32,000 nt of DNA, from NCBI RefSeq assembly GCF_000829235.1, contig NZ_AP012549.1:1950001-1982000 (forward strand), read 5' to 3'. The position numbers and the translations under genes are program-made. The notes beneath the pieces were generated by a model. The model was not told where the DNA came from, ran no database searches, and saw only the letters and a program-made list of their open reading frames with translations. Below are positions 1-32,000 of the stretch, in pieces. The DNA comes from a cyanobacterium endosymbiont of Epithemia turgida isolate EtSB Lake Yunoko. Its GTDB lineage: Bacteria; Cyanobacteriota; Cyanobacteriia; Cyanobacteriales; Microcystaceae. Each line of letters begins with the position of its first letter. Within the stretch, counting starts at the first letter, position 1.

Positions 1-1988
1 CTAAGTTGAAAGTTATCTGCATTTCGTTAAATTGTTGACTAATTGTAATGTAAGTTCGACGAGAATCAAAAATATAGTTTTTATTTTTAATATCTAAGGT
101 TGACAATTATCTAGAATGGTAACTGCCAATAATCAAGACTAAAATTTTTTTTTAACCCCAAAAAGCCAAAAATATATTATGTTTCACACCTTCTCTTTTT
201 CTAGTTTTTTTTAAAAAAATTATTTTTTAGCTGGCAAGAAGGTAAATAAAATTTTGATAAAAACTTGAATTTATTGAGTATTAAATTTTAGATATATTTC
301 TGCGCTAGTTGTTAACTATTTTGATAAAATAATATTTACGAGGTTAACTATTGTTAATTGGTTTAACCGACTTTTGCTACATACAACTAAGTATTTAAAA
401 ACTCAGTATACTTAACTATAAAATAGCTAAAAGACTCACGTAAAAGTAAAATAGATGAAACTAATTCTTATATTTTTTTTTGTAATTTGGTCAAAAGCAG
501 TACACTAACATCATTGTTCAGCTCATACATTCAGCAAGACGACAATAGCTAGCTATATTAAAAAATACTTTTTGACAATTAGAAAAATATATTTTAAATA
601 AAATTATTTTAAGATTCATATTCTTAGCTATAAAAAATAACTTGAATGCTTATAATTTTACAAGTCTTTTTAGAAGAAATTACTGTTAATAGAAGAACAT
701 AACATAGAATTTATATATTGAAAAATTAGATTTAATATGCATTAAGTATAACATGAACTATCTAAAATGTACTTAGTAAGTATTTTATAATTTTAAATTA
801 AGACACTACATTTAAATGTTCTGAGATTAAACTTAAATTAACTTTATAGAAGTTGACAAAGCATCAAAATTGAGTCAAAATCTTTTTGTCAATTATGACT
901 GTCAATTCATTGATTCCACTTAATTGCTTTAAGGCTCAGTAACAACGTTCAATAACTAAATAAATTGTTTTTAATTCAAGAAATATACTTTTATTAGTTT
1001 TCTTTAAGTTTTAACTATTTTTAGATAAATCACGAAAATATAGAATAAATAATCACAAAAATAACCTTTAATAAAATAATTATGATTTAACTCCTGTTTT
1101 TTGAAACATAGCAATTTAAAATTGCAAACCACTTTATATTTATTAATAATAAATTATATTAGAAATCTGTCAAATTGATAATTTTTTTAATGAATGCTAG
1201 ACAATGAAAGCTAATACTCTTTAGCATTTATTTATAATTGTGCTCCCAATATAAAAGATCTTCAGTACGAAAAAAACTAATGAATTATGATGATTATTGA
1301 AAACCAGGGGATATTAAACTATTAGAAATAACAGATAAGGAATTTTATAATTATCATAAACAAGTTTTAGTTACTACTCAAAACCAGACCAGGCAAATTA
1401 AACTAATCAATTTAAGCGAAGTTAAATAAATTGCCACATAGGATATTATGAATATATATTTAAAAGAACTAAATATAAATTTAAGTATTTAGTATTTCAA
1501 AATAAAACTATGTAATATTTAATAAATAAGTAGTACATAACTCCTGTCTATACTAATTATTTCTCACTATACATAATAATCTCATTTTGTCTTTCTCTTA
1601 TCTTCGGTATCAGGGTTTTCTTTGCACCGAGCCTCTTAATAAACTACCTTGAGAAGGCATAGATAAACCTTGCTATTAAAATAGTAAATAAGCTTTTTTT
1701 AAAAAAATATTTTATAAATAAAATAGTTAAGTAGAGTACGCTGGTTAAATCATTATTGTTATTAGTTAATAATCTAGTAAACAAAAGTAAAAACTTGCAC
1801 TTTATGAAAATTAAAATTAAGTTTTTGGGGTTGCATAATAAATCGAAAATAAAAGTCTGGGAAGTTATTAGCTACTAATTAATTTATTAGATTAAGTCTA
1901 GAATAGCTGTTATTTACACAACAGATCACAATCTAAAAAACTCAGGTGTATTTCAGTAGTAAAATACCAAACTAAATGTTTTAATATT

Positions 1989-2050
1989 AACTCAGAGAAA
2001 GTTTCTTGGTAAATAAAAATTTTTATTTACCAAGAAACTTTCTCTGAGTT
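1989..2050 (-). repeat. Perfect 62-bp spacerless palindrome (31-bp arms) that contains the stop codon and last 8-9 codons of the transglycosylase gene. It may act as a transcript-end stem-loop.
   Basis: Read directly. 1991-2019 ctcagagaaagtttcttggtaaataaaaa is the exact reverse complement of 2020-2048, and flanking aa/tt extend the pairing. No clean U-tract follows on either strand. Confidence 0.5.
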
Positions 2051-4221
2051 TTATGAGCTAATAATTTAGCGATCTCAGTATTATAAATCCGAAGATAATT
2101 CCAGTAATTACCAAACACAGATTCTATATAACTTTTTGTTTCTTGGAAGGGTATTTTTTCTACAAAAATATCAGGATCACTAACCTGATATATTCGTCTC
2201 CATTTTGAAACATTGCCGGGACCTGCATTGTAACTAGCAACAGCTAATAACGAATTATTACTATAGGTCTCATGGGTATAATTTAAATACCAGGTTCCTA
2301 GATTAACATTGTCATTAGGATTGTTCAAAGAATATTTTTTTAGAGCTATTTTATTAGCTACCCATTCACCTGTTGTTGGCATCACTTGCATTAACCCTTT
2401 TGCTCCCACTGGCGAGGTAATTTCTGGTTCAAAACGGGATTCTTGACGGATTAAAGAGGCTATTAACAAAGGATTAATTTTACGTTTATGAGACCAATCA
2501 ATGATAGTTTGATAGAAAGGAAAAGGAAAAAGCGCATACCAATATTCGGGGGTTTCTCTAAGGTTTTGCAATTGTTTTTTTGATTCAGGCCCGTCTTTAT
2601 TTTGAAGACTCCAAACTTGATTAATTCCTTGTAGGTTTTTTCCTTGTACGAGTTTCAGTAAAGTATCAGTAAAAGATTCATCAACACTTAATTGAGAGCG
2701 ATCATTCATTTCCGCTTTAAATAAAGTGATAGCATCCTCGTCTTGTCCTAGACGATATAGTTCTTTGAACATGTCCGATCCCGCCGGAGGAACCGAACGG
2801 ATATCAGGTTTAGTGACGGTGGGTAAGATTTGACGTATGGTATTAAAATTTCCCACATTCCAGCCTAACTGAACTGCTGATCGCCAAGCATAGTAAGATT
2901 GAGGATGATGGGAAACAACGTGTTCAAAAGCCGCTCTAGCATCCTGTGATCGCCCTAACTGTTGCGCCCATTTACCTACCCAAAAAGCCGCTTTGGGGGC
3001 GAGGGAACTGTTAGGATTATTACTTATAATAGGTTGCGCCCAAGTCCAGGCTTTGAGGACATCTCCTCGCTCAGCAGCTGTTTGCGCCACACTCCAACGA
3101 TATTTAGCGGTTGCATCAGCCTTAGGATATTGAACTAGTAAGGTTTCTCTACTTTTAGCTGCCTCAGCTTTGCGCCCTATCTCATCTAATAACTTAGCCT
3201 TTTCTACTAAAGCATCACCCGCTTCATTAGGAAATTGTTTAATAACTTGGTCAAAGTAGCCAATTGCGGTCTCAGATTGAGATAGTTTAGCGAGTCGTTT
3301 CAGGGCTGTTGCTGTTTCCGGAGCTGTAGGAAACTCTAATAATAAGCTTTGATAGCCTGTCTTTACCTCATTTTTACTATCACTGTTGGGTTGAATCTGT
3401 TGTCCCCTAGCAATACGATAGAGATTTTGAGGAGTAGCTGGAGCTTTTTTGTAAGCTTGGACTGCTTTATTATATTCGTTAGTTGTCCAATAGCCATCAG
3501 CGATCACTTGCCAGTTTTCGGGAGTCAATTGACTACTATAGTCTTGAACTAGACGATCGCGGATCGGGTTAGTCTTAGAGGTATTGGCATCATACTTAGC
3601 CAATAGAATCAACAATTGAGGTTGTTCTGGGTTTTCTTGAAAACGCTTACGGATAATCTTTTGCGTACTGGGATGTTGAGGAAATTTTTCAATCGCCTGC
3701 TCCCAATATTGGGGATCATATTCTCCTAATTTGTAGAGTGCTTCTGCTGCAACTAAAACATCGGGATAGGTTTTAACCAGTATTTTCCAGGTTTTTTGAG
3801 CTTTATCTATCTCATTGGTGAGTTCATAACCCCGTCCCCGTTTGAGGAGTATATAGGGAATTAGTACAGGATATTCTTTGTCTAATCCTTCAAGTTTACG
3901 TAAAGCCGGACCACCTTCATACTTTCGGAGTAAGTCAATAGCCAATAAATAACGACCGCGACTTCGTTCTAGAGAGAGAGTATCAGACTCAGCAATTTCT
4001 TGCAGTTTTTGCTGTCTTTGTTCTGAGGAAATCTCGGCTAAAGTCAGAACGATCGAAGGTTTATTAGGATCTTCTTTGAGAGCTTCTTCAATCTGTGTTT
4101 GTTGCCTCTGCTCGAACCATTCCACTGTTTTAGGAACCAGTAAAATGGTTCCAACAATGGTGATTCCTAGAATTCCTAAACCAGCAAAGAGGAAGTTTTT
4201 TTGTTTGAGTGACTTTAGCAT
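2023..4221 (-). CDS. Soluble lytic murein transglycosylase (Slt70-like), membrane-anchored or secreted
   Basis: 732-aa ORF with an N-terminal hydrophobic anchor (FLFAGLGILGITIVGTILLV) and a long helical-repeat region. The C-terminal SLT domain carries the catalytic motif IRQESRFEPEITSPVGAKGLMQVMP and AVASYNAGPGNV. Confidence 0.9.
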   Translation of the reverse strand: MLKSLKQKNFLFAGLGILGITIVGTILLVPKTVEWFEQRQQTQIEEALKEDPNKPSIVLTLAEISSEQRQQKLQEIAESDTLSLERSRGRYLLAIDLLRKYEGGPALRKLEGLDKEYPVLIPYILLKRGRGYELTNEIDKAQKTWKILVKTYPDVLVAAEALYKLGEYDPQYWEQAIEKFPQHPSTQKIIRKRFQENPEQPQLLILLAKYDANTSKTNPIRDRLVQDYSSQLTPENWQVIADGYWTTNEYNKAVQAYKKAPATPQNLYRIARGQQIQPNSDSKNEVKTGYQSLLLEFPTAPETATALKRLAKLSQSETAIGYFDQVIKQFPNEAGDALVEKAKLLDEIGRKAEAAKSRETLLVQYPKADATAKYRWSVAQTAAERGDVLKAWTWAQPIISNNPNSSLAPKAAFWVGKWAQQLGRSQDARAAFEHVVSHHPQSYYAWRSAVQLGWNVGNFNTIRQILPTVTKPDIRSVPPAGSDMFKELYRLGQDEDAITLFKAEMNDRSQLSVDESFTDTLLKLVQGKNLQGINQVWSLQNKDGPESKKQLQNLRETPEYWYALFPFPFYQTIIDWSHKRKINPLLIASLIRQESRFEPEITSPVGAKGLMQVMPTTGEWVANKIALKKYSLNNPNDNVNLGTWYLNYTHETYSNNSLLAVASYNAGPGNVSKWRRIYQVSDPDIFVEKIPFQETKSYIESVFGNYWNYLRIYNTEIAKLLAHKTQRKFLGK

Positions 4222-4362
4222 TCCATTTCTCGAACAACAGTTAAATATATATTATTAACCCTTCTGGGTTTATTTGGGGGCGTTTGCTTTGCATAGAGAT
4301 TATCCATCTATTTTCGCTGTGCATTTCTCTATAGAGATCACCGAGTCTTGTTTATTTAAAGT

Positions 4363-4406
4363 CCCATCATTCCCAGTAACTGATCGCAGTTACTGGGAAT
4401 GATGGG
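4363..4406. repeat. Perfect 20-bp stem / 4-nt loop inverted repeat in the region upstream of the transglycosylase gene
   Basis: cccatcattcccagtaactg-atcg-cagttactgggaatgatggg, read directly. The centre (tgatcgca) resembles a degenerate HIP1 core. Confidence 0.6.
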
Positions 4407-5900
4407 TAGAGAACTTATGCAAGTTCGTTTTTAACAGGCTCTTCATATGTATTCTTGATAAAAGTTTTGCAATATTTTTTCTGGTTTTTAGAAGTCAATT
4501 TGGTGATTATGCCGCGTATTTTTATGAACCTGTTAAGATAAAAAATCCCTACTTTTAGTGCAATTCTATTGAAGACTAACCCTTACAGTTTGCTCATACT
4601 TAAATTTAGTCCATACTTTCATTTATGATATTTATAATCAATTCTAGGATAATAAAGTGAGTTAAGTAAGAAGTGTTCGCTTTATATATTTCAATAGCTA
4701 ATATTTAATATTATTCGTTAATACATAACTCCTATCATGGATAAAATTTAAGTAAAAATCCAGTAAAGATTTATAACTTAGAAAATATTAGTTATACAAA
4801 ATTAAAAACCATAGTTATTATTCTCATTATATAAGTTAATCAATGAAGAATTCAACCACATAAAATTAACTTTACTCAGTAGATTAAAATAAAAATTTTA
4901 GGCAGATAAGTTTAACAAAAAAGTGAATGAAATAGTCCAATATACTTTAATTTCTTAAATATAAAATATAAAATATAGTTTTATGTTGATCATCCATCAA
5001 CTATTTCACCAATGGGTTTCACTGGTTTTTATTTCATACTCTGTTGATGAAAAGTAGTTAGTTTAAGTCCTTGTTGATAAAGGGGTTTATATATTTATTA
5101 AGCAAGATATCAAGCAAATTATTTACTGTAATGATATCTTGTGTTAACTCAAAAATAACTTTACAGTTATCTGTGTTAACTGTAGTTAACTTCACAGTTA
5201 ATAACCTTGGTCGTTTATGATTAAGTGTAGTCTATTTTAGTTCTTGATGTTACCCTAAATTGGTTTATTCTTGTTAAATTATTTTTTCAAAACTAGGTAT
5301 ACTCTATTGAGATTCTAATGAAAGACTCCTATCGGAACAGAATGAATGAAACTAATCCCTGTAATTCCTCTTTTGTGAATCAGTAAAAAACAACAAAGTA
5401 GTATCATTAAAAGGTTCAATACGCTGACCCATAAAAAGCGACTATAATGATCATAACTTTTCCTATTCTCATATAATAACTACATCATTTTTCTTTTAAA
5501 AATACTGTCAATTGAGTAACAGAATGATAATGCTGTTTTTATTTTTAATAAAAATGACTTAGACTATAAAACATCTCAGCGAGATCAAGACGATATTTTA
5601 TATTGATAGCACCAAACCTCAATAAATACTGCTGATAGCATAGCATGGAGTGGCTGCTTCCTTTTTTCTTAAATTATTGTCGAACTCACATTTTTTCAAC
5701 GAGAATTTCAGTCTTGATTGTTAACGGTTACCATTTTAGACAATCGTCAACCTCGTCACATTTTAACTTTAATATTGAGAATAAAAATAGTGTGTTTCAA
5801 TTTTATCAAATTCACATCCCTAGTGGGGACACTTTTCTGTTTGGGCGTTTTCTTGTACCAGATTCTATACTTAAAATCCTAAAATATTATATTTTTTACT

Positions 5901-5924
5901 AAAAAAAGGAGGGGATTACCCCTC
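5901..5924 (-). terminator. Rho-independent terminator of rpsA
   Basis: On the minus strand: gagggg-taat-cccctc followed by cttttttt, about 35 nt downstream of the rpsA stop. Confidence 0.7.
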
Positions 5925-5957
5925 GTTTACCAGTGTTGAGCCCAATTATAATTTTAA

Positions 5958-6983
5958 TTACTGCTCACTTACAGTAGTGGCTAATTCCTCTTCTGATTCT
6001 GAAGCTGATTCCTCTTCTGATTCTGAAGTTGACAGAATATCTAAATCCTCCTCTTGAGCCTCAGGTTGTATTTTTCCCTCCGCTTCAGCTATGAGTTTTT
6101 GGCGATATTTCTCAGCCATTTCTTCTGCTTTTTCAAAAACTAAATCCCGGTCTTTCAGCATATCACCAGGTTCGGGTTCAAGTTGTTTGGTCGATAAAGA
6201 AATTCGACCCCTTTCTGCATCTAAGTCAATGATCATGACTTTGAGTGAATCATTGACCCCAAAGACACTGTGGGGGGTATCGATATGATCATGGGAAATT
6301 TCAGAAATGTGCAGCAGCCCACTGACTCCCCCAATGTCGATAAATGCCCCATAGGGTTTGATTCCACGAACTGAACCAACTACCACCTGACCCACTTCTA
6401 AACCGTTCATCTTACGCTCAACCAGCGCACGACGATGGCTCAATACCAGACGGTTGCGCTCTTCATCGACTTCTAAAAACTTTAATGGCAGGTCTTCACC
6501 GACCAAATCTTCCTTAGCTTCGCGGGTGCTGATGTGAGAACCTGGGATAAATCCTCGTAACCCCTCAATGCGTACTAATGCGCCCCCTCGGTTTGTAGCA
6601 AAAACATTAGAGCGCACGGTAGCATCTTCGGCTTGTAGTTGGCGAACTCTTTCCCAAGCTCGCATATACTCAATCCTACGGATAGAAAGAGTTAATTGTC
6701 CATCTTCGTTTTCATCGGTCAGGATGAAAAATTCCCGTGTTTCATTCGATTGAAGAACATCTTCAGGATCGTCAACTCGGTTGATCGACATTTCTTGAAT
6801 GGGGATGTAAGCAGCAGTTTTCGCACCAATATCTATGAGCGCGCCTCTCGGTTCCATACTGAAAACTGTCCCAGGAACAATGTCCCCGGGATTAAAATGG
6901 TAGTCGTATTTATCGAGAAGTGCCGCAAAATCCTCGTGGGTGAAGCCAATATCTTGAGTAGCTGTTGTTTTCTGAGTTACCAT
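5958..6983 (-). CDS. rpsA: 30S ribosomal protein S1 (short cyanobacterial form, three S1 domains) with an acidic Ser/Glu tail
   Basis: 341 aa. Repeated S1/OB motifs: GDIVPGTVFSMEPRGALIDIG, RGGALVRIEGLRGFIPGSHIS, GQVVVGSVRGIKPYGAFIDIGGVSGLLHISEIS. AAGG lies 5 nt upstream of the ATG. Confidence 0.93.
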   Translation of the reverse strand: MVTQKTTATQDIGFTHEDFAALLDKYDYHFNPGDIVPGTVFSMEPRGALIDIGAKTAAYIPIQEMSINRVDDPEDVLQSNETREFFILTDENEDGQLTLSIRRIEYMRAWERVRQLQAEDATVRSNVFATNRGGALVRIEGLRGFIPGSHISTREAKEDLVGEDLPLKFLEVDEERNRLVLSHRRALVERKMNGLEVGQVVVGSVRGIKPYGAFIDIGGVSGLLHISEISHDHIDTPHSVFGVNDSLKVMIIDLDAERGRISLSTKQLEPEPGDMLKDRDLVFEKAEEMAEKYRQKLIAEAEGKIQPEAQEEDLDILSTSESEEESASESEEELATTVSEQ

Positions 6984-7379
6984 GTACCTTAGGTTATCCT
7001 ATGCCTGATCTCCAATAAATGTTAGTTTTTGTTTTAGTGTACAGTTTCTAACTTTTAGGGACTTATAGTTGATAAAAACATCTTCGAATATGAGACGCTT
7101 TTGTTTTGTCGGTTTTACCCGAACAGGATGAACTATAACACCCCAAACCCGAATATTGAGCTATTGGGAATTATTTTCATCATAATTTCTAAAGGGTCAT
7201 GAAAGTCTACACTGACGAGATCATCACTATACCTTATAGATTAAGTGGAAAAAAAGTGGCTCTGAGGAGACACCTTTCTGCCAATATAGCCCTCTTAGAC
7301 TTATGTCTTAAGAACAATTAGACGATGAAGTCGATCTAATCCATTAATATTTACAGAAAAAGACCCTAATTATGAAGTG

Positions 7380-7570
7380 CTTCAGAGTTAGCACAGCCGA
7401 AGGCTCCGCAATGCGGACGCTATGCCTGAAGCTCCTCAGGTTCACCTCGTAATGGGTTGATATAACTAACCATTTACCGAAGTAATGTCATGCTCGGCAT
7501 ACTATTTTTACCTAGTCGCTCCTGCATGAGCACCTCCCATGAGTGTAAGTTTCTGCACTCATTACGGTAC
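7380..7570 (-). ncRNA. Candidate structured RNA or leader: a GC-rich island with several short hairpins. Identity unknown.
   Basis: Local GC is far above the surrounding intergenic DNA. Minus-strand hairpins include two C(UUCG)G tetraloops (7395-7405, 7471-7487), ccgc-auu-gcgg (7406-7416), ccuga-ggagcu-ucagg (7425-7440) and a 7-bp stem (7539-7562). There is no long ORF in any frame. Confidence 0.3.
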
Positions 7571-7607
7571 ATCTTCAATCTTAGCATTGTTTTTATTTAA
7601 CCGGCTT

Positions 7608-8147
7608 CTAAGAGGAAGTTATCATGGAAGATGAGGAAGTTCCTTTATCAGAAGTGTTATGATTGTCCTCTTGCCAATGGGTTTCTGAGTGGGTTTTTTG
7701 TTCCTGAAATTGTTCTAGAGTGGCCACAAAATCTTTAATGCCTTGAAAGCGACCATAAACAGATGCAAAACGAATATATGCTACTTCATTTTCTTGACGA
7801 AGGTAATCTAACACTAATTGGCCAACTTCTTGGCTAGTTACTTCCCGTCGAGGATGCTGCTGCAATTGAGCCTCGATTTCATCAACAATCGATTCTAGTC
7901 TCTGATGGGAGATTCCTGTTTTCTCACAAGCCCGGATAATCGCTCGCAACAATTTAGAACGATCAAAGGATTCTTTTTTCCCGTCGTGTTTGACAACAAT
8001 GATGGGAAAAAACTCTACTCTTTCATAAGTTGTAAAACGATGTTTGCAACCTAAACACTCACGACGACGACGAATACTTTGTCCCCCTTCAGAGGAGCGA
8101 GACTCTAAAACACGACTATTGATGTGTTGACAGTATGGACATTGCAT
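7608..8147 (-). CDS. nrdR: Transcriptional repressor NrdR (zinc ribbon + ATP-cone)
   Basis: 179 aa. The canonical N-terminus is [45 protein letters not shown], followed by an ATP-cone region. Confidence 0.95.
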
Positions 8148-8335
8148 GGAACTGTCCGTAATAACGGATATTGAATTAACAATAAGCTAGCCAACAGTAC
8201 AGTAAAAAATGAACAATCTAAGCAGAACTAGCAACTAGCTATGCTGATATATCTATTCTCTCTAGAAGGGAAAAAACATAGGAGATTGGGGGTATATTAA
8301 CAGCAGTTGATTCTAGTAGAATAGATAGTCGAAAT

Positions 8336-8429
8336 TTATGTTTCAATACGAGGGATTGACCGAAAGGCGATATCGAAAAACAATACAACTAAAGCCATAC
8401 CAAGAAACATAATAAGCAGCGCTTTCCAT
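8336..8429 (-). pseudogene. psbT: psbT (photosystem II reaction centre protein T) remnant with a 1-nt frameshift
   Basis: The minus strand reads ATG GAA AGC GCT GCT TAT = MESAAY. After a +1 shift it reads IMFLGMALVVLFFDIAFRSIPRIET*. From memory, the PsbT consensus is MESVAYIL..L..GVLFFAIAFREPPRIE. The length is 94 nt (3n+1). It lies 111 nt downstream of the psbB remnant, which is the usual psbB-psbT arrangement. Confidence 0.8.
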
Positions 8430-8540
8430 TTGATTGATTTCCTAAAATTGCTTGCGTTCCCAGTGTATCAAAAAAGTTGATAATTTTTTAATGTTTAGCG
8501 ATTATAGGGATAATTAAACTTGACTTTTTAAGATAAAATA

Positions 8541-9889: not shown

Positions 9890-10446
9890 TGACTACGCTC
9901 CTCCTATTAAGGATATATCGGCTTCAATGCTTTTTTGTATTAGTTGTCTTGGGTTATTTAATTATTATCAAATCCGTGATCGTTCTTCAAGTAAATGTCT
10001 CCGCTCAAGATTAGGCTAACTTGTATTATTTTGAGAAAGTAAAAATTACCTAAAGAAGGACAATTAAATCATTGTTTAGACTCGATTGTAAATCTAAGAA
10101 GGCTACGAGTTATCTGGAAATTAAGTCTAATGTATCTATTTCAAGGTATCACGCTTCAATTACAAGATATCCATTCTCTTTTGAGCTGATGACTCTATTT
10201 CTTGACAATTATTCTCTCAGATGGAGTATGATTAGATTTTCTATCGTCCTGTACCGACAACAGTAAGTTGGCAGTAGGATAAAAATTTTCTAACAAAAAA
10301 CAACACGACAGCATTGCCTTGTCCACCACTACTTTAGTTTGTAATAGTAATATTGTCACTTTATTTTTCAATAAACTTCAATTAAATTTAAAACATCGAC
10401 ATTATAGTCAAAAGTCTCAAGAGTTGATAGAATTTTTGAAAATTTT

Positions 10447-22088: not shown

Positions 22089-22123
22089 GCCTAACTGACG
22101 TATTATAAATACGTCAGTTAGGC
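22089..22123. terminator. 16-bp perfect stem / 3-nt loop between convergent genes (candidate bidirectional terminator)
   Basis: gcctaactgacgtatt-ata-aatacgtcagttaggc, read directly. It lies 11 nt after the stop of the 21707 ORF and 46 nt after the birA stop. Confidence 0.55.
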
Positions 22124-23070: not shown

Positions 23071-23904
23071 GTGATTTCTTCCTTAAATCGTCAAACCCAA
23101 ACCCCCATTTGGCAATGGCAACAATGGGATGGACTCCCCTATTTGACTTGTACCTTGCTCCAAGCTTGGAAACATGGCTTTTTGACCCAACAGTTTTCTC
23201 CCCGTCTTCCTGAAAATTTAACAGAAGTTTTACATCCAAACGCAACAACCTATAGGGTTAAGCAGGTTCATGGCTGTCGGGTGTTGACTGCAACAGAAGT
23301 TAAGAAACAAATAACAACAAAGACTCCAAAAGATACCTTTCCTTCTGCTGACGGATTAATCACTGATGATAAGAATCAAGCTATTTGGGTCGCTAGTGCT
23401 GATTGTACCCCCGTGTTAGTCGGAGACATTAAGACTCACCGAGTAGCAGCTATTCATGCAGGATGGCGAGGCACTGCACAACGTATTGTTCCTGAAGCTA
23501 TTGCCTATTTTCAACATTTTGGAAGTACCTTAGATAATCTCCGCATTGCCATGGGTCCAGCCATCTCAGGAGAAGTTTATCAAGTTTCGGAACAGGTGGC
23601 AGCCGAAGTGGGGTCAAGTCTATTCAAAACAGAAGAAAAAAGCAGTCCCCAGGAAATTTTAGAAGCTTTACGTACTATGTTTGACTCTCCAATTTTACCT
23701 GATCCAAAACCTGGACGGGTACGACTGGATGTACGACGGGTTAACGAATTGCAGTTATACGAATTAGGGATTAAGACAGACCAAATAGCGATAGCCCCCC
23801 ATTGTACCTATCAAGAACCCGATGATTTCTTTTCCTATCGACGCACTAAACAAAAGAAAGTCCAATGGTCAGGAATTGTTTGTGGGGACTACTTGAAACA
23901 ATAA
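23071..23904 (+). CDS. pgeF: YfiH/PgeF family (DUF152, laccase-domain / peptidoglycan editing factor / purine nucleoside phosphorylase) protein. Starts with GTG.
   Basis: 277 aa. Motifs: LPYLTCTLLQAWKHGFLTQQF, KQVHG, ADGLIT, SADCTPVLV, AIHAGWRGTAQRIV, CTYQEPDDFFSYRR. GAGG lies 9 nt upstream. Confidence 0.9.
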   Translation: MISSLNRQTQTPIWQWQQWDGLPYLTCTLLQAWKHGFLTQQFSPRLPENLTEVLHPNATTYRVKQVHGCRVLTATEVKKQITTKTPKDTFPSADGLITDDKNQAIWVASADCTPVLVGDIKTHRVAAIHAGWRGTAQRIVPEAIAYFQHFGSTLDNLRIAMGPAISGEVYQVSEQVAAEVGSSLFKTEEKSSPQEILEALRTMFDSPILPDPKPGRVRLDVRRVNELQLYELGIKTDQIAIAPHCTYQEPDDFFSYRRTKQKKVQWSGIVCGDYLKQ

Positions 23905-23970: not shown

Positions 23971-24979
23971 TTAAACCCCTGTACGACCTAGCGCTAACCC
24001 CGTAGCCAAAATTCCTAAAACCAGAAATGATTGTGCGCTGGATTGATATTTAACATTCTCTTGCAAAGAATCACTTGGAAAATACACATTTTGGAGGGTA
24101 ATTTGAGGAATCACCAATGATAATAACATGAATGCATAAAGATTTTGATGGATATATATTTTAGATAGCCAGCAACCCCGACTTTAAATAAATTAATCAT
24201 AATTACACAAATTAAAGCTACTATATTGATTCTAAACATAACCGGAAGGGAATTTAGCCCTAGCTGACGATCACCCTCGACATTCTTAAAATTATTAACA
24301 ACTGCAATGCCCAAACCTGCAAAACTATAGAACAGGGTTAGGATCACAATTGTCCAATTTAAGTCTCCAAATAAAGCGTGACCGTCCGGCCCACCAAGGT
24401 AAAGCAATGTAACTTGCACCAAGGGCATAATTCCCTAAGCAGCTATTTTGTTTCAATTTGAAAGGAGGGGCTGAGTAGATATAAGAAGCCACAAGTGCGC
24501 CTCCTAGGGTCAAAGAAAACATGGTTTGGAACTCATAAGCTGCCCAGATATCTAAAGCGTATTCTAGTGCTATTAGGGCTAGGCCTAATAGCACTAGAAT
24601 TTGAGTGACTACTTGAGTAACAGAAATTGCTCCTGACGGAATAGGACGATAGGGTTCATTAATAACATCGATTTCACGGTGATAAAAATCATTAAAATCC
24701 TTAGTAGTTTGAGTGTAGTCAGCCATCAATAGTCCTGAAAGCAACATACAAGCGGCTATTTTGAGGACATTTTCGAGCATCCAGACAATACCCTCCTGAT
24801 AAGGCTGCGCCACAGACTATGTTCCAAATCAGGAGAATCCAGGTGATGGGTTTCATCAATTGCAGTCGTAATTTCCAAATTAATGTTTCCCCGGGGTCCG
24901 CCCCTTTCATACCTAGTAGTTGACGGGTATTCTTCTTCTCATCTTCAGGCTGAGATACAGAAAATTCAGACATAAGCAA
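23971..24979 (-). pseudogene. chlG: chlG (chlorophyll a synthase, UbiA prenyltransferase family) pseudogene: near full length with at least 3 frameshifts and a damaged Asp-rich motif
   Basis: Four consecutive frame segments match ChlG in order:
- TRQLLGMKGADPGETLIWKLRLQLMKPITWILLIWNIVCGAALSGGY
- LKIAACMLLSGLLMADYTQTTKDFNDFYHREIDVINEPYRPIPSGAISV...YIYSAPPFKLKQNSCLGNYALGASYIALPWWAG
- GHALFGDLNWTIVILTLFYSFAGLGIAVVNNFKNVEGDRQLGLNSLPVMF...AGYL
- LLSLVIPQITLQNVYFPSDSLQENVKYQSSAQSFLVLGILATGLALGRTGV*
The first catalytic motif is recalled as NDFYDRDIDAINEP. Here it reads KDFNDFYHREIDVINEP. The likely original ATG is at 24973. Confidence 0.92.
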
Positions 24980-25060
24980 TTATGAATCAATACAATAGCA
25001 TTCTAATGATGAATTCCTAAGAAACTGAATCAAGAGCGTATTTGGAATACACCCCTGGAA

Positions 25061-26158
25061 TTAGAAAGAAATAATTAAATAGTGATTTTGGAATTTTGCA
25101 CCTCTAACAGGTTGTCTCCGTAAAGGCACAGGTAGCTCAATATTTCGCCGTTGATCTCCTGCTTCAATAGTAATTTCTGGACCATATTGAGTTAATTTAA
25201 TTTGATTTTTATCGAATCCTGGCAAAAACACCCGAACTTCTCTAGAAACTGCATCGACTGTAATAGGTTGTGGGGGCATAGAATCAGCGAGAAAATCTGG
25301 TAAAGCATCTTGTAGGGATTGCCAATCTGTTCCCGTCGGTTGGGAAATAACTGTTACTGATAAAGGAGAAAATTCCTGGGACAGAGAATCAATAAGTTTA
25401 CCTTTATGAACCAAAACCCCTTTAACTATTAACCCCACCTGTTGAGCACAACCCCAGTAATATTTAGTCTGAGCAATCGCCAATTCGTCATCAGTGGTCA
25501 CTAAATAGGTTGCCACATGTTTAGGATCAGCCAAAGCATTTTTCCATTTCCCTAAAATATCATTGGCGTGATTAGTAGGTTCAGTAGCAGGATCATTAGG
25601 CGTCCAAGAGACATTTAAGATGGCACTAATGATGGGTTGAATAAAGGGGGAAAGTGTTTTGCCAACATCTGATTCTTTCAATACCTGACCAAATCGCCGC
25701 AGATACCAACTGAGGATTTCTGGAATTCCAAACATCCGTATGGTACTTAAAGGACTGTCACCGTCGTAGACAATAACATCGTACTTGCAGCTTTGGTAAT
25801 ATTCCCATAAAGCGTTGAGGAACAAGGCTCTATCTATCCCTGGCAAAATACCCAATTCTTGACCATAGATATTTTGCAAAGTCGGCGACCGCAAATATTG
25901 GGATTCTAATTCTTTAACTTTTTCCCATCCTTTCTCTAACAGAAAAGTTGAGGATAACTTAACTGCCATTAAATTAGGCGACACTTCTGTTGGGAAAGTA
26001 TTCACAGGGGTTTCAAGTAAAGTGCTCAAAGTCGGTCCAGGGTTTTGTCCCACCAAGAGAACTCGTAACCCTAAATTGGATAGTTTTTGGGCAGTTGCGA
26101 TCGACACTAAACTTTGATGACTATCGCCTTTACCTAAAAAAGTCAAAATCAAAGTCAT
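25061..26158 (-). CDS. ArsA/Get3-family ATPase-like protein with a C-terminal HSP20/CS-like domain and a strongly degenerate P-loop
   Basis: 365 aa. N-terminus: MTLILTFLGKGDSHQSLVSIATAQKLSNLGLRVLLVGQNPGP. Family members carry GKGG-x-G(K/R)TT at this position. Also DVIVYDGDSPLSTIRMFGIPEILSWYLRRF, and a C-terminal beta-sandwich-like VRVFLPGFDKNQIKLTQYGPEITIEAGDQRRNIELP. Confidence 0.75.
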   Translation of the reverse strand: MTLILTFLGKGDSHQSLVSIATAQKLSNLGLRVLLVGQNPGPTLSTLLETPVNTFPTEVSPNLMAVKLSSTFLLEKGWEKVKELESQYLRSPTLQNIYGQELGILPGIDRALFLNALWEYYQSCKYDVIVYDGDSPLSTIRMFGIPEILSWYLRRFGQVLKESDVGKTLSPFIQPIISAILNVSWTPNDPATEPTNHANDILGKWKNALADPKHVATYLVTTDDELAIAQTKYYWGCAQQVGLIVKGVLVHKGKLIDSLSQEFSPLSVTVISQPTGTDWQSLQDALPDFLADSMPPQPITVDAVSREVRVFLPGFDKNQIKLTQYGPEITIEAGDQRRNIELPVPLRRQPVRGAKFQNHYLIISF

Positions 26159-26184
26159 GGGAACTCCTAATTAATCTTCATTGG

Positions 26185-26379
26185 CTATTCAACTGGCTTT
26201 AGTTCATCTTCAAAAAACCAAACCGCAGTTTTATCTGCAAACTGAACAATTGCCCCAATGCCGCTCCCATCAGTCATTTTAAAGTTCTTAACGGTTCCTT
26301 GTTGACCTAGTTTATTGAAAATATCTTTGGATACTCGATCTTGAAGACGGTAAATTTGAACTTTCTGTCCGATTTTCAT
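26185..26379 (-). CDS. Small SH3-like protein, DUF2862 / cytochrome b6f-associated PetP-like
   Basis: 64 aa: MKIGQKVQIYRLQDRVSKDIFNKLGQQGTVKNFKMTDGSGIGAIVQFADKTAVWFFEDELKPVE. The pattern (GxKVxVxRLRDRV...KxTDGxGxGxxVxFxD...WFFExEL) matches my recollection of the cyanobacterial PetP family. This assignment needs HMM confirmation. Confidence 0.55.
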   Translation of the reverse strand: MKIGQKVQIYRLQDRVSKDIFNKLGQQGTVKNFKMTDGSGIGAIVQFADKTAVWFFEDELKPVE

Positions 26380-26502
26380 GTTCTCTTAATTTCAATCAAA
26401 GTAATGAAACACTCCTTAGTGTAGCCGAATACGGACCTATGTTCATCCTAAAAAATCAGTTAGAATCTAGGCGTCTACCAATAAACGACTCGACAAAGGT
26501 GC

Positions 26503-26531
26503 TTGACATTGAATACAATACCCCTTTAAAT
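26503..26531 (+). promoter_or_regulatory. Candidate sigma70-type promoter of the ABC-2 exporter operon
   Basis: TTGACA (26503-26508), a 17-nt spacer, then TTAAAT (26526-26531), 27 nt upstream of the permease ATG. AT-rich context makes chance matches likely. Confidence 0.4.
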
Positions 26532-26557
26532 CATGATTCATCATTTCGATTCCCATT

Positions 26558-27364
26558 ATGAGCTTATCGGCACAAGTTGGCCCGAAATGGTCGCCTTTAA
26601 GGCGATATCTAGAGCTTCTCCATATTTTGGTTGAACGCAATTTAAAAGGACGTTATCGAGGTTCGTTTTTAGGAGTCTATTGGTCTTTGCTCAACCCCTT
26701 GATCATGACAGGTCTTTATGCCGCAATTTTTGGAACTGCTTTTGCCAGATACTATAACAATAGTACCTTAAACTATATTCTGGCAGCGTTTACAGGGCTG
26801 ATTGTGATTAACTTTTTCTCGGCAGCTACCAATCAGGCTCTAGGCAGTGTGGTCGGAAATGGTCCTTTACTTAATAAAATCAAAATCCCTGTTTCTATTT
26901 TTCCTATTTCAATGATTGTGGCTAATACCTTTCAATTTGTGATGGGTCCATTACCTTTATTAGCAATAGTCACTTTAATAATTAATAGAAACCCTGTTAG
27001 TGTCGTGGCGTTAGTATTTCCCCTAATTGCTTTAAGTCTGGTTTGTACAGGGGTCGGACTGTTAGTAAGTGCTCTATTTGTGTTCTTTCGAGATCTGCCT
27101 TATTTTTATGAGTTGATTTGTTTTGTACTTTGGATCAGCTCGCCCGTATTCTATCCGGCCGAAATCGTTCCCGCTAAGGTCAAATCCTTTTTACTACTAA
27201 ATCCCTTAATTCCTATTATTGAAAGTATTCGTCAAATTTCCTTATCAGGGACTTTGCCTGATTTGATGTTAATTGGGCATTCATTTCTCAATGGAATTAT
27301 CCTTTTAATGCTAGGGTGGACTTGTTTTCGCGCCTGGCAAAACCAATTTATGGACTTGCTCTAG
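26558..27364 (+). CDS. ABC-2 type polysaccharide/O-antigen/teichoic-acid export permease (Wzm/KpsM/TagG-like)
   Basis: 268 aa with 6 predicted TM helices. N-terminal signature: ELLHILVERNLKGRYRGSFLGVYWSLLNPL. It is followed directly by the cognate ATPase. Confidence 0.9.
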   Translation: MSLSAQVGPKWSPLRRYLELLHILVERNLKGRYRGSFLGVYWSLLNPLIMTGLYAAIFGTAFARYYNNSTLNYILAAFTGLIVINFFSAATNQALGSVVGNGPLLNKIKIPVSIFPISMIVANTFQFVMGPLPLLAIVTLIINRNPVSVVALVFPLIALSLVCTGVGLLVSALFVFFRDLPYFYELICFVLWISSPVFYPAEIVPAKVKSFLLLNPLIPIIESIRQISLSGTLPDLMLIGHSFLNGIILLMLGWTCFRAWQNQFMDLL

Positions 27365-27371
27365 AAGTTAC

Positions 27372-28142
27372 ATGACGGAAGTAATTAGACTCGATCAAGT
27401 TTCTTTATCCCGCAGAACCCAAGAGGAGTTCTCTTATGACTTGAAGAAAACTATTCTTTCTTTCTTAGAAGGTAAGTATCGCCAACCCTCAAGAAAGTTG
27501 ATTCTCGACCAAATTAGCTTAACAGTGAAAGTGGGAGAAAAAGTTGGCATTATTGGAGCTAATGGCTCAGGAAAATCCACCCTGCTCAAAGTTCTCTGTG
27601 GTATTTTGCAGCCATCTACAGGGCAGGTCAGAGTTAAGGGAGAAATTGCTCCCTTAATTGAGTTAGGAGCAGGCTTTGATGCCGAATTATCTGTAACTGA
27701 CAATATCATTCTTTATGGAGTCATGTTAGGATTTTCTCGCCAAGATATGAAGAAGCGGGTCGCAGACATTTTAAACTTTGCTGAGTTAGAGGAATATGCA
27801 TGGGCTCCTGTCAAAGCCCTTTCGTCGGGGATGACAGCTCGCTTGGGGTTTGCCATTGCCACTGATATTGAACCCGATGTGTTAATCCTTGATGAAGTCC
27901 TTTCAGTAGGAGATGAAAGTTTTAAGCACAAATGTCAAAGACGGATGGATAAATTATGGGGCCATCACACTACTATTTTAGTGGTTTCTCATGGATTGGA
28001 GTTTATTCAACAGTCTTGTGATCGCGCCATTTGGTTAGATCGCGGTAAAATTCGCTTTGCGGGTAACACCGATGAGACAATTGATTGTTATCTAACGTCA
28101 GTTCAACAAAATCAAGAGATAGGATTACATCAACAGCTATGA
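27372..28142 (+). CDS. ABC transporter ATP-binding protein of polysaccharide exporters (Wzt/KpsT/TagH-like, short form without a C-terminal glycan-binding domain)
   Basis: 256 aa. Walker A GANGSGKST, Q-loop, signature LSSGMTARLGFA, Walker B VLILDEVLSVGD, H-loop VVSHG. Confidence 0.93.
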   Translation: MTEVIRLDQVSLSRRTQEEFSYDLKKTILSFLEGKYRQPSRKLILDQISLTVKVGEKVGIIGANGSGKSTLLKVLCGILQPSTGQVRVKGEIAPLIELGAGFDAELSVTDNIILYGVMLGFSRQDMKKRVADILNFAELEEYAWAPVKALSSGMTARLGFAIATDIEPDVLILDEVLSVGDESFKHKCQRRMDKLWGHHTTILVVSHGLEFIQQSCDRAIWLDRGKIRFAGNTDETIDCYLTSVQQNQEIGLHQQL

Positions 28143-29071
28143 AAATATTAATCACTGGAGGCGCGGGTTATATTGGGTCGGTTCTGACCCCAACTCTATT
28201 GGCAAAAGGCTATGAAGTGACAGTTTTAGACAATTTTATGTTCCGGCAAAATAGTCTGGCTGATTGTTGTCAATATGATACATTTAATATAGTTCGTGGC
28301 GATTGTCGTGATGAATCTACTATCAAGGAGTTGCTTCATGACACGGATGTTATCATCCCTTTAGCTGCCTTAGTAGGTGCGCCTCTGTGTGGTAGAGATC
28401 AGATAGGAACCCAAACCATTAATTATGAGGCAGTTAAACTAATCTGTGATTTAGCAAGTCCGGAACAACGTATTTTGATGCCTGTTACTAATAGCGGTTA
28501 CGGTATTGGGACATCAGGCAAGTATTGTACTGAAGAATCTCCTTTGCGTCCTATTTCTCTCTATGGCAGCACCAAAGTAAATGCAGAAAGGACAGTTTTA
28601 GAGAGGGGAAATAGTATCACTTTTCGTTTAGCTACAGTATTTGGGATGTCTCCTCGAATGCGGGTAGATCTCTTAGTCAATGATTTTGTTTACCGTGCTT
28701 TTTATGATCGTGCTGTGGTCATTTTTGAAGGGCATTTTAAGCGAAATTATATCCATATTCGGGATGTTGCTAAGGTGTTTGTCCATGGGATCGAAAATTT
28801 TGAGTCGATGAAGGATAAATCCTATAATGTAGGACTTGATGATGCTAACTTATCAAAATTAGAGTTGTGCGCAGAAATTCAAAAGTATCTGCCTAAATTT
28901 GTTTATTCAGAAGCCCCTATTGGGGAAGACCCTGACAAAAGAGATTATATCGTTTCTAATGCTCGAATTCTTAATACGGGGTTTGAAACAGATTGGTCTT
29001 TAGGACGCGGGATTAAAGAGTTAATTAAAGGTTATACAATTTTGCGGAACACTCTTTATTCTAACGTTTAA
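28139..29071 (+). CDS. NAD-dependent sugar epimerase/dehydratase (extended SDR)
   Basis: I take the start at MKILITGGAGYIGS. Its ATG (28139) overlaps the ATPase TGA (28140-28142) as ATGA. Catalytic SLYGSTKVNAE (YxxxK). 310 aa. Confidence 0.9.
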   Translation: MKILITGGAGYIGSVLTPTLLAKGYEVTVLDNFMFRQNSLADCCQYDTFNIVRGDCRDESTIKELLHDTDVIIPLAALVGAPLCGRDQIGTQTINYEAVKLICDLASPEQRILMPVTNSGYGIGTSGKYCTEESPLRPISLYGSTKVNAERTVLERGNSITFRLATVFGMSPRMRVDLLVNDFVYRAFYDRAVVIFEGHFKRNYIHIRDVAKVFVHGIENFESMKDKSYNVGLDDANLSKLELCAEIQKYLPKFVYSEAPIGEDPDKRDYIVSNARILNTGFETDWSLGRGIKELIKGYTILRNTLYSNV

Positions 29072-29112
29072 AACTTAAGCGGGAGTTGATAATAACTCCC
29101 GCTTAAGTTTTA
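29069..29112 (+). terminator. Terminator of the exporter/epimerase operon: 19-bp perfect stem, 6-nt loop, with the 3' arm ending in UUUUA
   Basis: taaaacttaagcgggagtt-gataat-aactcccgcttaagtttta. The stop codon (29069-29071) lies inside the 5' arm. Confidence 0.6.
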
Positions 29113-29242
29113 AAAAAATCTTCATAGCAAATTCCTTGAATTTATTTTAAGAGAGTATTGAAATTAGAGCCTAATTTTTTTCTACTATTTTTTATCATAG
29201 ATTTTGACTCTTCAATAGACTATAATTGGTATTATTTATTTA

Positions 29243-29287
29243 GAATTTACAGTCTCAAAATTAAGATAACTTTGAGACTGTAAATTC
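29243..29287. repeat. Perfect 17-bp stem / 11-nt loop inverted repeat in an AT-rich desert
   Basis: gaatttacagtctcaaa-attaagataac-tttgagactgtaaattc, read directly. Confidence 0.6.
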
Positions 29288-29838
29288 GCACTAAATCTTT
29301 AATAAATTATCTAATTAACTTGTTTATAATCTGATTTTATAGTCTTTTGTGAATATATTTATTAACATAAATAATAGATTGTTTGTAGATAGTAAAATTT
29401 TTGTTGATTGAACATTTTTATAAAAATAATTAACTTACTATATAAGTATTGCTAAAACTATTTTCAGAAGTAAACTAATGTTATTTGTCTTTTATGAAGA
29501 AACTATTTTGTCTAAAAAAATAACTATGTTTTTTCATAGTATTGAGAGTCTTCATTTAAGATTTTATATAAAACTTATTGGTGATCTTTAATTTTTTTTA
29601 TATATTGAATAATTTTCATATATTTTTAATAAAAAGTGTGAGCGTATCAAGAGATATTTATAAGTTATTAAATAGTAATATTTTAGTATTTAGTTTAAAT
29701 TTTAAGTTGTTGATATAGTAAACTAGAAATCCTTATTTATTTAAAATTGCTCATCATTTAATGGAAAAGTTAATACGAAAGTCATCGTTATGGTCTATTG
29801 ACATAAGTCAATAAAAATAAAACGGTTTATATTAATTA

Positions 29839-29884
29839 ATAACCCCAAAAATATTAATAATATTATTAATATTTTTGGGGTTAT
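29839..29884. repeat. Perfect 46-bp spacerless palindrome (23-bp arms) in an AT-rich desert
   Basis: ataaccccaaaaatattaataat|attattaatatttttggggttat. Every position was checked pairwise. Confidence 0.6.
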
Positions 29885-30067
29885 AATATGTTCATATTTC
29901 AAAACTAATAGTAGTCGAGTCGATTTGAGACTTTAATTTTAGCTATAAAATATTAGTATTAATTCTGATTTGATTGGGAATCGGAATTATTTTCGGTCTC
30001 TAATAGGGTCGACGTAAGAAATGAATACCCCTATCATCTATAGTTGAGCCCCAACATTTAGACTCAT

Positions 30068-32000
30068 TTAACTACGAAGTGTTACCTTAAATTTTTTCAC
30101 TAAAGCGTTGCGAATTTTGTCGTGAATCGGTTCAACATCCTCATCAGTTAAAGTGCGATTGCCTGCACGATAAACTAGACTGAAGGCTAGACTCCGTTCT
30201 CCTTTAGGAACATTTTCTCCTTGATATTGATCGAATAATTCAACCCCTACAAGTAATTTTCCCCCCGCTTCGTTTATCACTTGAGTTAAGTCTGCAACGG
30301 AAACTTTTAAAGACGCAAAAAAGGCTAAATCTCGTTCCACTGCGGGATAGCTAGAATAGAGACCTAAAATAGGGTTCATTAACTCCTCTTGTCCTAACGT
30401 TTCTAACAACATGTTGAAATTCAGTGTGAAAGCATATACTGCATCAATTAAATCTTTTTCTTGTCGTAATCGAGGGTGCAATTGTCCAAAAATTCCTAAT
30501 TGTTTTTTACTAACCCATAAAGATGCAGTCCGGCCAGGATGTAACCTTTCATCACTATTATCGGGTTGGTAAGTTACATCTAACCCTAAACTGACAAAAA
30601 CACTTTCGAGTATACCTTTTGCTTCATACCACCCCATAAATACTGACTTTCCGCTGCGAATCCACCGTCCTTGAGGAAACATATCACCGCCCATAATTCC
30701 TACAACTTCGTCCAATTCTTGATATTTTTCATCAACTATACGGAAAGTTGGCCCAATTTCAAAAGCATTGAATGCACCATTTCCTTGAGACTGGTTATAA
30801 GCAAACGCATCAATTAAAGCATCAAGTAGATTAGTTCGTAACGCTGCGTATTCAGCAAATAAGGGGTTAGCAATGATAATATCTGCTTTTTCTGGTTTAA
30901 CTAATGAATATTGAATAACTTCCGTCAACCCTACCGCGCGGAATACCTCCCGAACCTTACGTTGAACCTGATAGTCAAAAGAGAGTCCCCCAGGTTCAGT
31001 TTTATCAGGAAGTTCATCACAAAAATGCTCGTAACCATACAGACGCGCTACCTCTTCAATTAAATCAATTTCCCGTTTTAAATCCTGATAACGGTAGGAA
31101 GGAACCGAAACTTTCCAAACATTATTTCCACCTTTAACGGGGCTTAAATCACATCCTAGATTAATTAGAATGCGCTCTACATCTATTGCAGCCACATTAG
31201 CTGTTGTACCATTTTTTTTAATTGGACCTAAAATCTGATGTATTCGTTCTAATCTTAGAATAATGGATTCGGTTGACAAATCCGGACGATTATCTTCTAT
31301 AACTTGAGTGACAGGGGTTCCTTCTGCTAACTCTGCAATCAGAGCGATCGCAAGATTACACGCAATTTCTAACTCAGATTGATTAATCCCCCTTTCATAT
31401 CTTGCAGAAGACTCGCTACGTAGACTCTGGCAACGAGAGGAACGACGAATTGTTACTTGATCAAACAAAGCCGCTTCAAGGACGATATTTTGAGTAGTGT
31501 CGTCCACCTTGGTTTCGTATCCTCCCATAACTCCCGCTAAAGCAACAGGTTTATCATTAGCAGTAACAATTAAATTAGCAGATTTTAAATTTCTTTCTTG
31601 CTCATCTAGTGTTTTTAATGTTTCTTTTTCTGTTGCAAATCGTACCCCTAACGTTAACGGTGTTTCTTTTGCAACGGTTTCCAGTTTATCTCGATCAAAT
31701 GCGTGGAGAGGCTGTCCCCATTCCAACATAATTAAATTTGTTACATCCACCACATTATTAATGGGACGGACTCCTGCTACTTCAAGTCTGTTTTGCAACC
31801 ATTTAGGCGACTGTACAATTCTCACGTTTTCAATGACGGTTCCTATATATGCAGAACAAATATTTCCGTCTGATACTTTAACTTTGAGAAAATAGGAAGA
31901 CTTTTGAGGAAAAAAAACTTTCGGAGATTTTGGTAAGTTTAATTCTCCACCTGTTAATGCTGCAACTTCCCGCGCAATCCCCACCATACTCAACGCATCT
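30068..32000 (-). CDS. pheT: Phenylalanine--tRNA ligase beta subunit, C-terminal approx. 640 aa. The N-terminus lies beyond the window edge.
   Basis: The ORF is open to the window end. B3/4, B5 and catalytic-like core regions: [40 protein letters not shown]. The C-terminal ferredoxin-fold anticodon-binding domain reads [10 protein letters not shown]...[33 protein letters not shown]. Confidence 0.95.

Follow-up and report, generated by a model that had tools for sequence, protein, structure and literature searches.

The 32,000-nucleotide stretch of cyanobacterial DNA analyzed here (positions 1,950,001 to 1,982,000 of contig NZ_AP012549.1, hereafter the window) raises the question of what kind of organism keeps intact housekeeping genes side by side with broken genes for the photosystems (psbB and psbT), chlorophyll synthesis (chlG) and a KaiB-domain protein, and separates them by long AT-rich tracts, here termed deserts, that hold almost no open reading frames (ORFs). 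An initial annotation, made from the sequence alone, had proposed a spheroid body (SB, or diazoplast) of a rhopalodiacean diatom or, alternatively, an undescribed lineage at a comparable stage. The former proposal is borne out and the latter is wrong, as the window belongs to the published genome of the SB of Epithemia turgida (EtSB). Its RpsA, DAHP synthase and NosAFP proteins are exact, full-length matches to the EtSB GenBank entries BAP18092.1, BAP18100.1 and BAP18106.1, respectively, and its FAD oxidoreductase, the fourth exactly matching protein, is identical to a copy in the Logan assemblies. We put at about 97% the probability that the window is a 32-kb piece of the EtSB chromosome, and hence of an obligate, vertically inherited, non-photosynthetic, N2-fixing endosymbiont in the middle of reductive evolution; nif genes were not found in the 32-kb window itself.

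The EtSB genome paper is reportedly that of Nakayama et al. from 2014. The chromosome has 2,794,318 bp, a GC content of 33.4% and 225 pseudogenes (Nakayama and Inagaki, 2017; PMC5638926), and the slightly higher GC content of the window (36.2%) is explained by its being a gene-containing sample. Nothing of substance differs between the window and published EtSB, since the sequence is the same and EtSB is described as lacking photosynthesis, with a pseudogenized chlorophyll a (Chl-a) pathway and dead insertion sequence (IS) elements. The nearest genomes are likewise those of SBs. When NrdR was scanned over one genome per prokaryotic species and the best 80 loci were considered, the top five comprised four SB genomes, from Rhopalodia gibberula, R. 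gibba, E. clementina and E. pelagica (symbiont uoEpiScrs1), together with the free-living "unicellular cyanobacterium SU2" in fourth place, which a 2026 preprint names as the closest free-living relative of the SBs; no genome of the UCYN-A lineage was present among these 80 loci.

The comparison of synteny with Epithemia and Rhopalodia SB genomes that the initial annotation had suggested gave a single collinear blastn chain in each of five cases, namely the SBs of R. gibberula (RgSB), R. gibba, E. clementina (R. californica; EcSB), E. pelagica and E. adnata. Nucleotide identity to the window in coding sequences (CDS) is 94.1% for the R. gibba SB, about 93% for RgSB and EcSB, and 86% for the E. 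pelagica SB. These four genomes have the same gene order, deserts at orthologous sites, the psbT frameshift of -2 described below and low coding density, but the stage of decay differs from EtSB gene by gene. By far the closest is the SB of E. adnata 19Bon2 (CP076462; Abresch et al., 2024, PMC11131595), with 99.2% identity in CDS and 97% in non-coding DNA, which shares with the window every chlG frameshift, every lesion of the KaiB-domain gene, a relic of pilT and the converted arm of a palindrome. The E. turgida symbiont, or one nearly identical to it, also seems to have been re-sequenced around 2024 in the SRA run SRR29904087 (contigs L001 and L082; also SRR29904083), and a literature search gave no paper mentioning run SRR29904087.

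The composition of the window is that of a genome laden with dead DNA. Its 19 uninterrupted CDS sum to 17,637 bp, or 55.1% of the window, at 40.8% GC, while the four pseudogenes named in the initial annotation cover about 3.2 kb (10.0%), rising to 4,001 bp (12.5%, 37.2% GC) when the pilT and IS982-like relics are included; the remainder, 32.4% of the window, has a GC content of only 28.0%. These values agree with the earlier estimates of about 55% intact CDS and 11% recognizable pseudogene, the rest being ORF-free and AT-rich. The large desert blocks (1-2022, 4222-5957, 12589-13937, 19968-21706 and 29072-30067) lie at 22-29% GC and contain almost no ORFs of at least 60 amino acids (aa). With 19 CDS in 32 kb, or 0.59 genes per kb, the window falls within the range of 0.58-0.68 genes per kb published for SB genomes, in which low density is ascribed to degraded gene remnants and which are further characterized by high synteny, a lack of intact transposases and a GC content of about 33-35% (PMC11131595; 2026 preprint). 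Free-living relatives are denser, as had been expected: in the homologous neighborhoods of Rippkaea orientalis PCC 8801 and SU2, summed gene calls give a coding share of about 86%. Both share with the window the local gene orders psbB-psbT-nrdR-rpsA and epimerase-ABC-ABC-tsr0524-nosAFP-chlG, at 38-40% GC, but all of these genes are intact in them whereas some are broken in the window.

Intact and decayed sequences differ just as clearly in the way they evolve. The 18 CDS with an intact orthologue in the R. gibba SB show ratios of nonsynonymous to synonymous substitution rates (dN/dS) of 0.04-0.36, with dS of about 0.10-0.34, and the intact genes of the window are under purifying selection. Identity to the R. 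gibba SB falls from 94.1% in CDS to 87.5% in pseudogenes and 85.4% in the rest, and 87% of the deserts can be aligned; given the dS values, the non-coding DNA therefore diverges at approximately the synonymous rate. This fits dead DNA that is old, evolves neutrally and was inherited from the SB ancestor rather than having been recently inserted. That housekeeping and cofactor genes have remained intact, as the initial annotation stated, holds insofar as rpsA, nrdR, cobA, rpsO, DAHP synthase, birA, pgeF, NosAFP and pheT all exceed their NCBIfam curated cut-offs, but it does not extend to cbiX, which looks selectively unconstrained (see below).

All four genes reported as broken, psbB, psbT, chlG and the KaiB-domain paralogue, are indeed disrupted, and all lie at their expected syntenic positions. 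The most heavily decayed is psbB (CP47; 8544-9892, minus strand), which is recognizable by tblastn as five fragments in three frames with the CP47 of SU2 as query, itself scoring 1034 bits to TIGR03039. In the remnant the frame changes at least four times and more than 20 stops lie in frame; aa identity to intact SU2 CP47 is 37-58% (about 40%), and the GC content has fallen to 38.8% compared to 49.3% in SU2; in EcSB and the E. pelagica SB the gene is almost wholly deleted. The adjoining psbT (8336-8429, minus strand), compared with the PsbT of SU2, keeps its "MESAAY" start and is then shifted by -2 after codon 6-7. The identical 2-nt deletion was found in all six SB genomes examined (EtSB and the five above), including that of the early-branching marine E. 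pelagica symbiont, and is absent from SU2, where intact psbB and psbT adjoin nrdR, and from two Crocosphaera genomes; in the loci of the relatives, psbT lies at 9693-9843 of L002, 9697-9847 of L003, 9699-9849 of L004 and 9694-9822 of L006. Judged by this distribution, the deletion appears to be a shared derived lesion, by which a photosystem II (PSII) gene would have been inactivated before the SBs radiated. The description of the organism as losing photosynthesis is accordingly correct as to the broken genes, but since the psbT lesion is in all six SBs, "has lost" is the better wording.

In the case of chlG (chlorophyll synthase; 23974-24976, minus strand), the pseudogene is still full length and is seen by tblastn as four fragments in different frames, which match TIGR02056 below its cut-off. 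It has 39.8% GC and is interrupted by three frameshift insertions (+1, +4 and +2), with no stops within the fragments and 68-77% aa identity, and it occupies the same position next to nosAFP as the intact 326-aa chlG of Rippkaea and SU2. The three indels are common to the E. adnata SB, which has additional private lesions (+5, +5, -13/-20 and a loss of 15 nt within a palindrome), and none of them occurs in the independently broken copy of the R. gibba SB, while RgSB keeps an intact chlG ORF (PMC5638926). Within the SB clade, chlG was therefore inactivated on more than one occasion.

The fourth gene (19213-19967, minus strand; 36.4% GC), delimited by alignment to its orthologues, is a pseudogene whose unbroken form encodes 252 aa with a KaiB domain at the C-terminus. 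Codon 9 is a stop, a second nonsense codon is present, 18 bp are deleted and there are insertions of +4 and +10. All of these lesions recur in the E. adnata SB. In the R. gibba SB the gene is intact (252 aa), and so it is in EcSB over the part of that locus in view. The R. gibba SB protein matches Pfam KaiB at 93 bits, with the domain confined to residues 170-246, and reaches only 78 and 74 bits against the two NCBIfam KaiB models, whose cut-offs are 110 and 145. Its length and these scores rule out a canonical circadian KaiB, which is about 100 aa and exceeds the equivalog cut-offs. The broken gene is best regarded as a KaiB-domain paralogue, as had been proposed; the further assignment to circadian timing was not sustained, and a clock role can only be conjectured. 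A literature search found no paper tying Epithemia to kaiB.

Could the lesions simply be errors of sequencing or assembly, with the genes themselves intact? The pattern in chlG, with only three indels and no internal stops in the fragments, is one that homopolymer errors can give. However, Logan contigs from SRR29904087, an independent short-read assembly, are 100% identical to the window over about 20 kb (2021-16983 and 24391-29868), which includes psbB, psbT and the 5' part of chlG with its first frameshift, leaving 24138-24390 of chlG uncovered. Moreover, the E. adnata SB, which was assembled separately, has all three chlG frameshifts and all of the KaiB-domain lesions, the +4 and +2 insertions in chlG are not homopolymer slips, and psbB contains more than 20 stops. 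On the strength of the Logan identity and the recurrence in the E. adnata SB, this explanation, which the initial annotation had itself raised, is therefore rejected as having next to no chance of being correct. It is equally improbable that the window comes from a free-living, photosynthetic Crocosphaera- or Rippkaea-like cyanobacterium, in which the broken genes would be redundant paralogues of intact copies elsewhere. Some photosynthesis and kai genes do have paralogues in cyanobacteria, and no more than 32 kb of the genome is in view, but the broken copies occupy the single orthologous positions of the intact SU2 and Rippkaea genes, and the coding density of 55% contrasts with the approximately 86% in the same neighborhoods of the free-living relatives. 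In addition, the proteins of the window exactly match EtSB, in which no functional photosystem and no functional chlorophyll pathway were found: most photosystem I (PSI) and PSII genes are absent and the whole Chl-a pathway is pseudogenized or undetected (PMC5638926).

A different endosymbiont would account for some of the same features. UCYN-A, or the nitroplast (Candidatus Atelocyanobacterium thalassa), likewise fixes N2 and is related to Crocosphaera; living in a unicellular alga as an endosymbiont or organelle, it has lost PSII but keeps PSI and chlorophyll synthesis. Its ancestry is thus similar to that of EtSB, but it is of a different lineage and its genome is far smaller and compact, whereas 45% of the window is non-coding. 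As the initial annotation had argued, the loss of chlG, now seen to involve three frameshifts, is at odds with a lineage that keeps PSI and needs chlorophyll. Together with the exact identity to EtSB proteins, the closeness of rhopalodiacean SB genomes and the lack of UCYN-A among the best NrdR loci, this makes an origin from the UCYN-A/nitroplast lineage, or from some undescribed lineage reduced to a similar degree, extremely unlikely, and the window is treated in what follows as EtSB DNA.

Gene remnants in the deserts were sought by tblastn, the queries being 1,610 ORFs taken from 79 loci of free-living cyanobacteria. One outcome was a relic of the C-terminal third of pilT (20104-20502, minus strand; E = 4e-14, four stops), within the desert at 19968-21706 (28.5% GC). 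The query that detected it is itself recognized as a PilT/PilU ATPase at 468 bits, and orthologous relics exist in the R. gibba SB (E = 1.5e-21) and the E. adnata SB. This relic was not listed in the initial annotation, and it fits the loss of motility in an endosymbiont. The desert at 4222-5957 (28.5% GC) holds a relic of an IS982-like transposase (5318-5628, minus strand; E = 2e-18, three stops and a change of frame), which has an orthologous relic in EcSB, as well as a conserved hairpin at 4363-4406 with covariation. A much weaker IS982-like match lies at about 494-583 (minus strand; E = 0.13), supported by better-preserved copies at the orthologous sites of the R. gibba SB (E = 7e-8) and RgSB (E = 7e-9), in the desert at 1-2022 (22.7% GC), which aligns at 77-81% with the orthologous region of the R. 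gibba SB. The GC content of the pilT and IS relics is 28-35%. Fragmented IS982-like relics, flanking slt, are the only transposases in the window, which is consistent with the 18 dead IS elements of EtSB, all with fragmented transposases (PMC5638926). The same search gave nothing for most of 1-2022, for 12589-13937 (27.1% GC), where no remnant is recognizable, or for 29072-30067 (22.2% GC), where three long hairpins (29067-29114, 29243-29287 and 29837-29886) were found and no protein remnant. Small ORFs in the deserts (5645-5902 and 12549-12767) and their counterparts in related loci (12101-12562 and 562-846 of L003, 5051-5332 and 5481-5762 of L002, and 10833-11150 of L004) match no Pfam family and were treated as non-genic or unidentifiable rather than as genes.

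How could such a landscape arise? On the best-supported explanation, ordinary reductive evolution of an endosymbiont confined to its host, the host would have made certain functions dispensable and so lifted selection from psbB, psbT, chlG, pilT, the KaiB-domain paralogue and the transposases of old IS elements. Genes no longer under selection would first gather frameshifts and stop codons. Mutational bias would next make them richer in AT, and small deletions would shorten them, so that in the end they became unrecognizable, ORF-free DNA of 22-28% GC, while the housekeeping genes between them would be held in place by purifying selection. With slow deletion and no active mobile elements, dead DNA would linger and coding density would stay near 55%. 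We infer that AT-biased mutation and slow deletion are the cause of the desert state and that the featureless deserts are fully decayed genes. The window displays a series of decay stages. The losses of chlG and the KaiB-domain gene appear to be recent and confined to the E. turgida/E. adnata lineage. Those of psbB and psbT are ancient: every SB examined has the psbT lesion, and two lineages have already deleted psbB. Only relics are left of pilT and the IS elements, and the remaining deserts are featureless. Pseudogenization is reported to have proceeded further in EtSB than in RgSB (PMC5638926).

Several points weigh against this account. For about 32% of the window, homology to the tested genes could not be detected, so that the origin of this part from decayed genes is one that we infer. 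Part of the deserts is conserved and structured, as indicated by covarying hairpins, and hence not all of it is junk. The GC content of psbB (38.8%) is above that of the deserts although its operon partner psbT had already been broken in the ancestor common to the examined SBs, and the gradient of GC content with age is therefore not strictly monotonic. Finally, the absence of second copies of psbB, psbT and chlG rests on the published EtSB analysis.

One of the intact ORFs may already belong among the dead genes. The gene for a sirohydrochlorin chelatase family protein, cbiX (15223-16083, plus strand; 286 aa, Pfam CbiX), differs from its E. adnata SB orthologue at 16 nt and 13 aa in 286 codons (dN 0.020, dS 0.015, dN/dS 1.35). 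For comparison, 11 of 12 genes nearby have dN/dS of 0.00-0.49 against the same genome, the exception being pgeF with 1.17 on only five differences. The cbiX orthologue is fragmented in the R. gibba SB and the E. pelagica SB, and its drift fits the loss from EtSB of 14 of 17 genes of B12 synthesis (PMC5638926). Small as these counts are, they are suggestive of relaxed selection on cbiX, which may be a remnant of the lost B12 pathway and in effect a cryptic pseudogene.

The structured part of the deserts consists of long hairpins. The window contains 11 of them, with arms of 14-31 nt, loops of 0-6 nt and at most one mismatch, whereas simulation gives 0-1. Besides those in the deserts mentioned above and one in chlG, they lie at 1989-2050, 10448-10488 (20+20 nt, after the FAD-dependent oxidoreductase gene and with covariation), 13051-13082, 14584-14619, 17352-17385 and 22089-22123. 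All differ in sequence and most are located at gene ends, and several keep their pairing by compensatory changes on both arms across SB genomes. One of them is a perfect palindrome without a loop (1989-2050; 31+31 nt), the right arm of which comprises the last codons of slt and which shows compensatory changes in RgSB and the R. gibba SB. The long hairpins are thus conserved structures that probably act as terminators, and parts of the deserts are therefore functional. A search of Rfam (E ≤ 0.1) returned only two sub-threshold MIR781 matches on the 62-nt palindrome, which were rejected as an artefact of a perfect hairpin, and a mobile family of miniature inverted-repeat elements was ruled out by the arm sequences all being different. 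Palindromes number 2-5.4 per 10 kb in SB loci and 0-2.4 in free-living relatives; the case for enrichment as a trait specific to endosymbionts is weak.

The hairpin in chlG is of a different kind, a near-perfect palindrome of 40 nt (24561-24600) that arose de novo within the dead gene. Here the ancestral 'AG---GACTAGCCCTAGGAT' has given way, with a gain of 3 nt, to an exact reverse complement of the arm next to it on the upstream side. Such a change is the hallmark of a template-switch mutation, in which a quasi-palindrome is converted to a palindrome, and the event predates the split between EtSB and the E. adnata SB, since the latter carries the converted arm and later lost 15 nt of the other. 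Taken together, the chlG palindrome and the covarying hairpins hint at a mutational process in SB genomes that perfects hairpins.

As for novelty, it is already published (2014-2017 for the decay itself) that EtSB has lost photosynthesis and chlorophyll synthesis, that its IS elements are dead and that its coding density is low, and the main finding is not new. Its value is as a check, in that the type of organism was correctly diagnosed from raw sequence alone, and no new biology is added by it. The psbT lesion of six SBs that predates their radiation, the cryptic cbiX, and the covarying hairpins with the template-switch palindrome may have gone unreported, at odds that we put slightly below even. 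SBs are a leading model for the transition from free-living bacterium to nitrogen-fixing organelle, and the window presents this process in miniature: neighboring genes have reached different stages of decay, dead DNA still awaits deletion, and housekeeping genes continue to be selected. The shared psbT lesion, the drifting cbiX and the covarying hairpins could serve as markers by which to order gene losses across some 30 SB genomes.

The remaining genes are intact, and dN/dS values are given relative to the R. gibba SB. On the minus strand, the window begins with slt (2023-4221), encoding a 732-aa lytic transglycosylase with TPR and SLT domains (NCBIfam and Pfam SLT; dN/dS 0.20), followed by rpsA for ribosomal protein S1 (5958-6983; 341 aa, NF005639 at 650 bits with a cut-off of 460, the gene of BAP18092.1; 0.04), nrdR (7608-8147; 179 aa, TIGR00244 at 223 bits with a cut-off of 125; 0.29), the FAD-dependent oxidoreductase gene (10495-12588; 697 aa, Pfam FAD_oxidored; 0.12) and a thioredoxin-like protein assigned by family matches (13938-14579; 213 aa; 0.19). 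Genes on the plus strand then encode a NIL-domain/4Fe-4S ferredoxin protein, also assigned by family matches (14757-15161; 134 aa; 0.18), uroporphyrinogen-III C-methyltransferase (cobA, 16125-16904; 259 aa, NF004790 at 353 bits with a cut-off of 198; 0.14), ribosomal protein S15 (rpsO, 17025-17294; 89 aa, TIGR00952; 0.06), DAHP synthase (18023-19084; 353 aa, NF009933 at 691 bits with a cut-off of 486, BAP18100.1; 0.08) and a conserved hypothetical membrane protein (21707-22078; 123 aa; 0.15) that has no family match and is also present in the R. gibba and E. adnata SBs. Beyond these are biotin-protein ligase (birA, 22169-22987, minus strand; 272 aa, TIGR00121; 0.28), pgeF (23071-23904, plus strand; 277 aa, TIGR00726 at 218 bits with a cut-off of 141; 0.18) and NosAFP, a 365-aa ATPase of the Get3/ArsA fold (25061-26158, minus strand; NF050088 at 542 bits with a cut-off of 325, BAP18106.1). 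An ABC-2 permease (26558-27364), an ABC ATPase (27372-28142) and an NAD-dependent epimerase/dehydratase (28139-29071) form a three-gene block on the plus strand that is also found in Rippkaea and SU2 (0.07-0.11), and the window closes with the C-terminal 643 codons of pheT (30068-32000, minus strand; TIGR00472 at 537 bits with a cut-off of 403; 0.24), the N-terminus of which lies beyond the window edge. A scan of the window for tRNA genes gave none.

The intergenic region between rpsA and nrdR (6984-7607) has a GC content of 38.6%, which is high for non-coding DNA here, and is conserved across SB genomes. Within it, the stretch at 7002-7340 matches at 75-94% in translated comparisons, but its frame changes between genomes and it is on the opposite strand in SU2, which disfavors its being a gene; it is probably a conserved leader or promoter of rpsA. 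A further minor observation concerns the Tsr0524-like small protein of a cytochrome b6f-associated family (26185-26379, minus strand; 64 aa, PF11061 at 100 bits), the gene of which is intact and strongly conserved (dN/dS 0.08) despite the loss of photosynthesis, and this fits the retention of b6f for respiratory electron transport.

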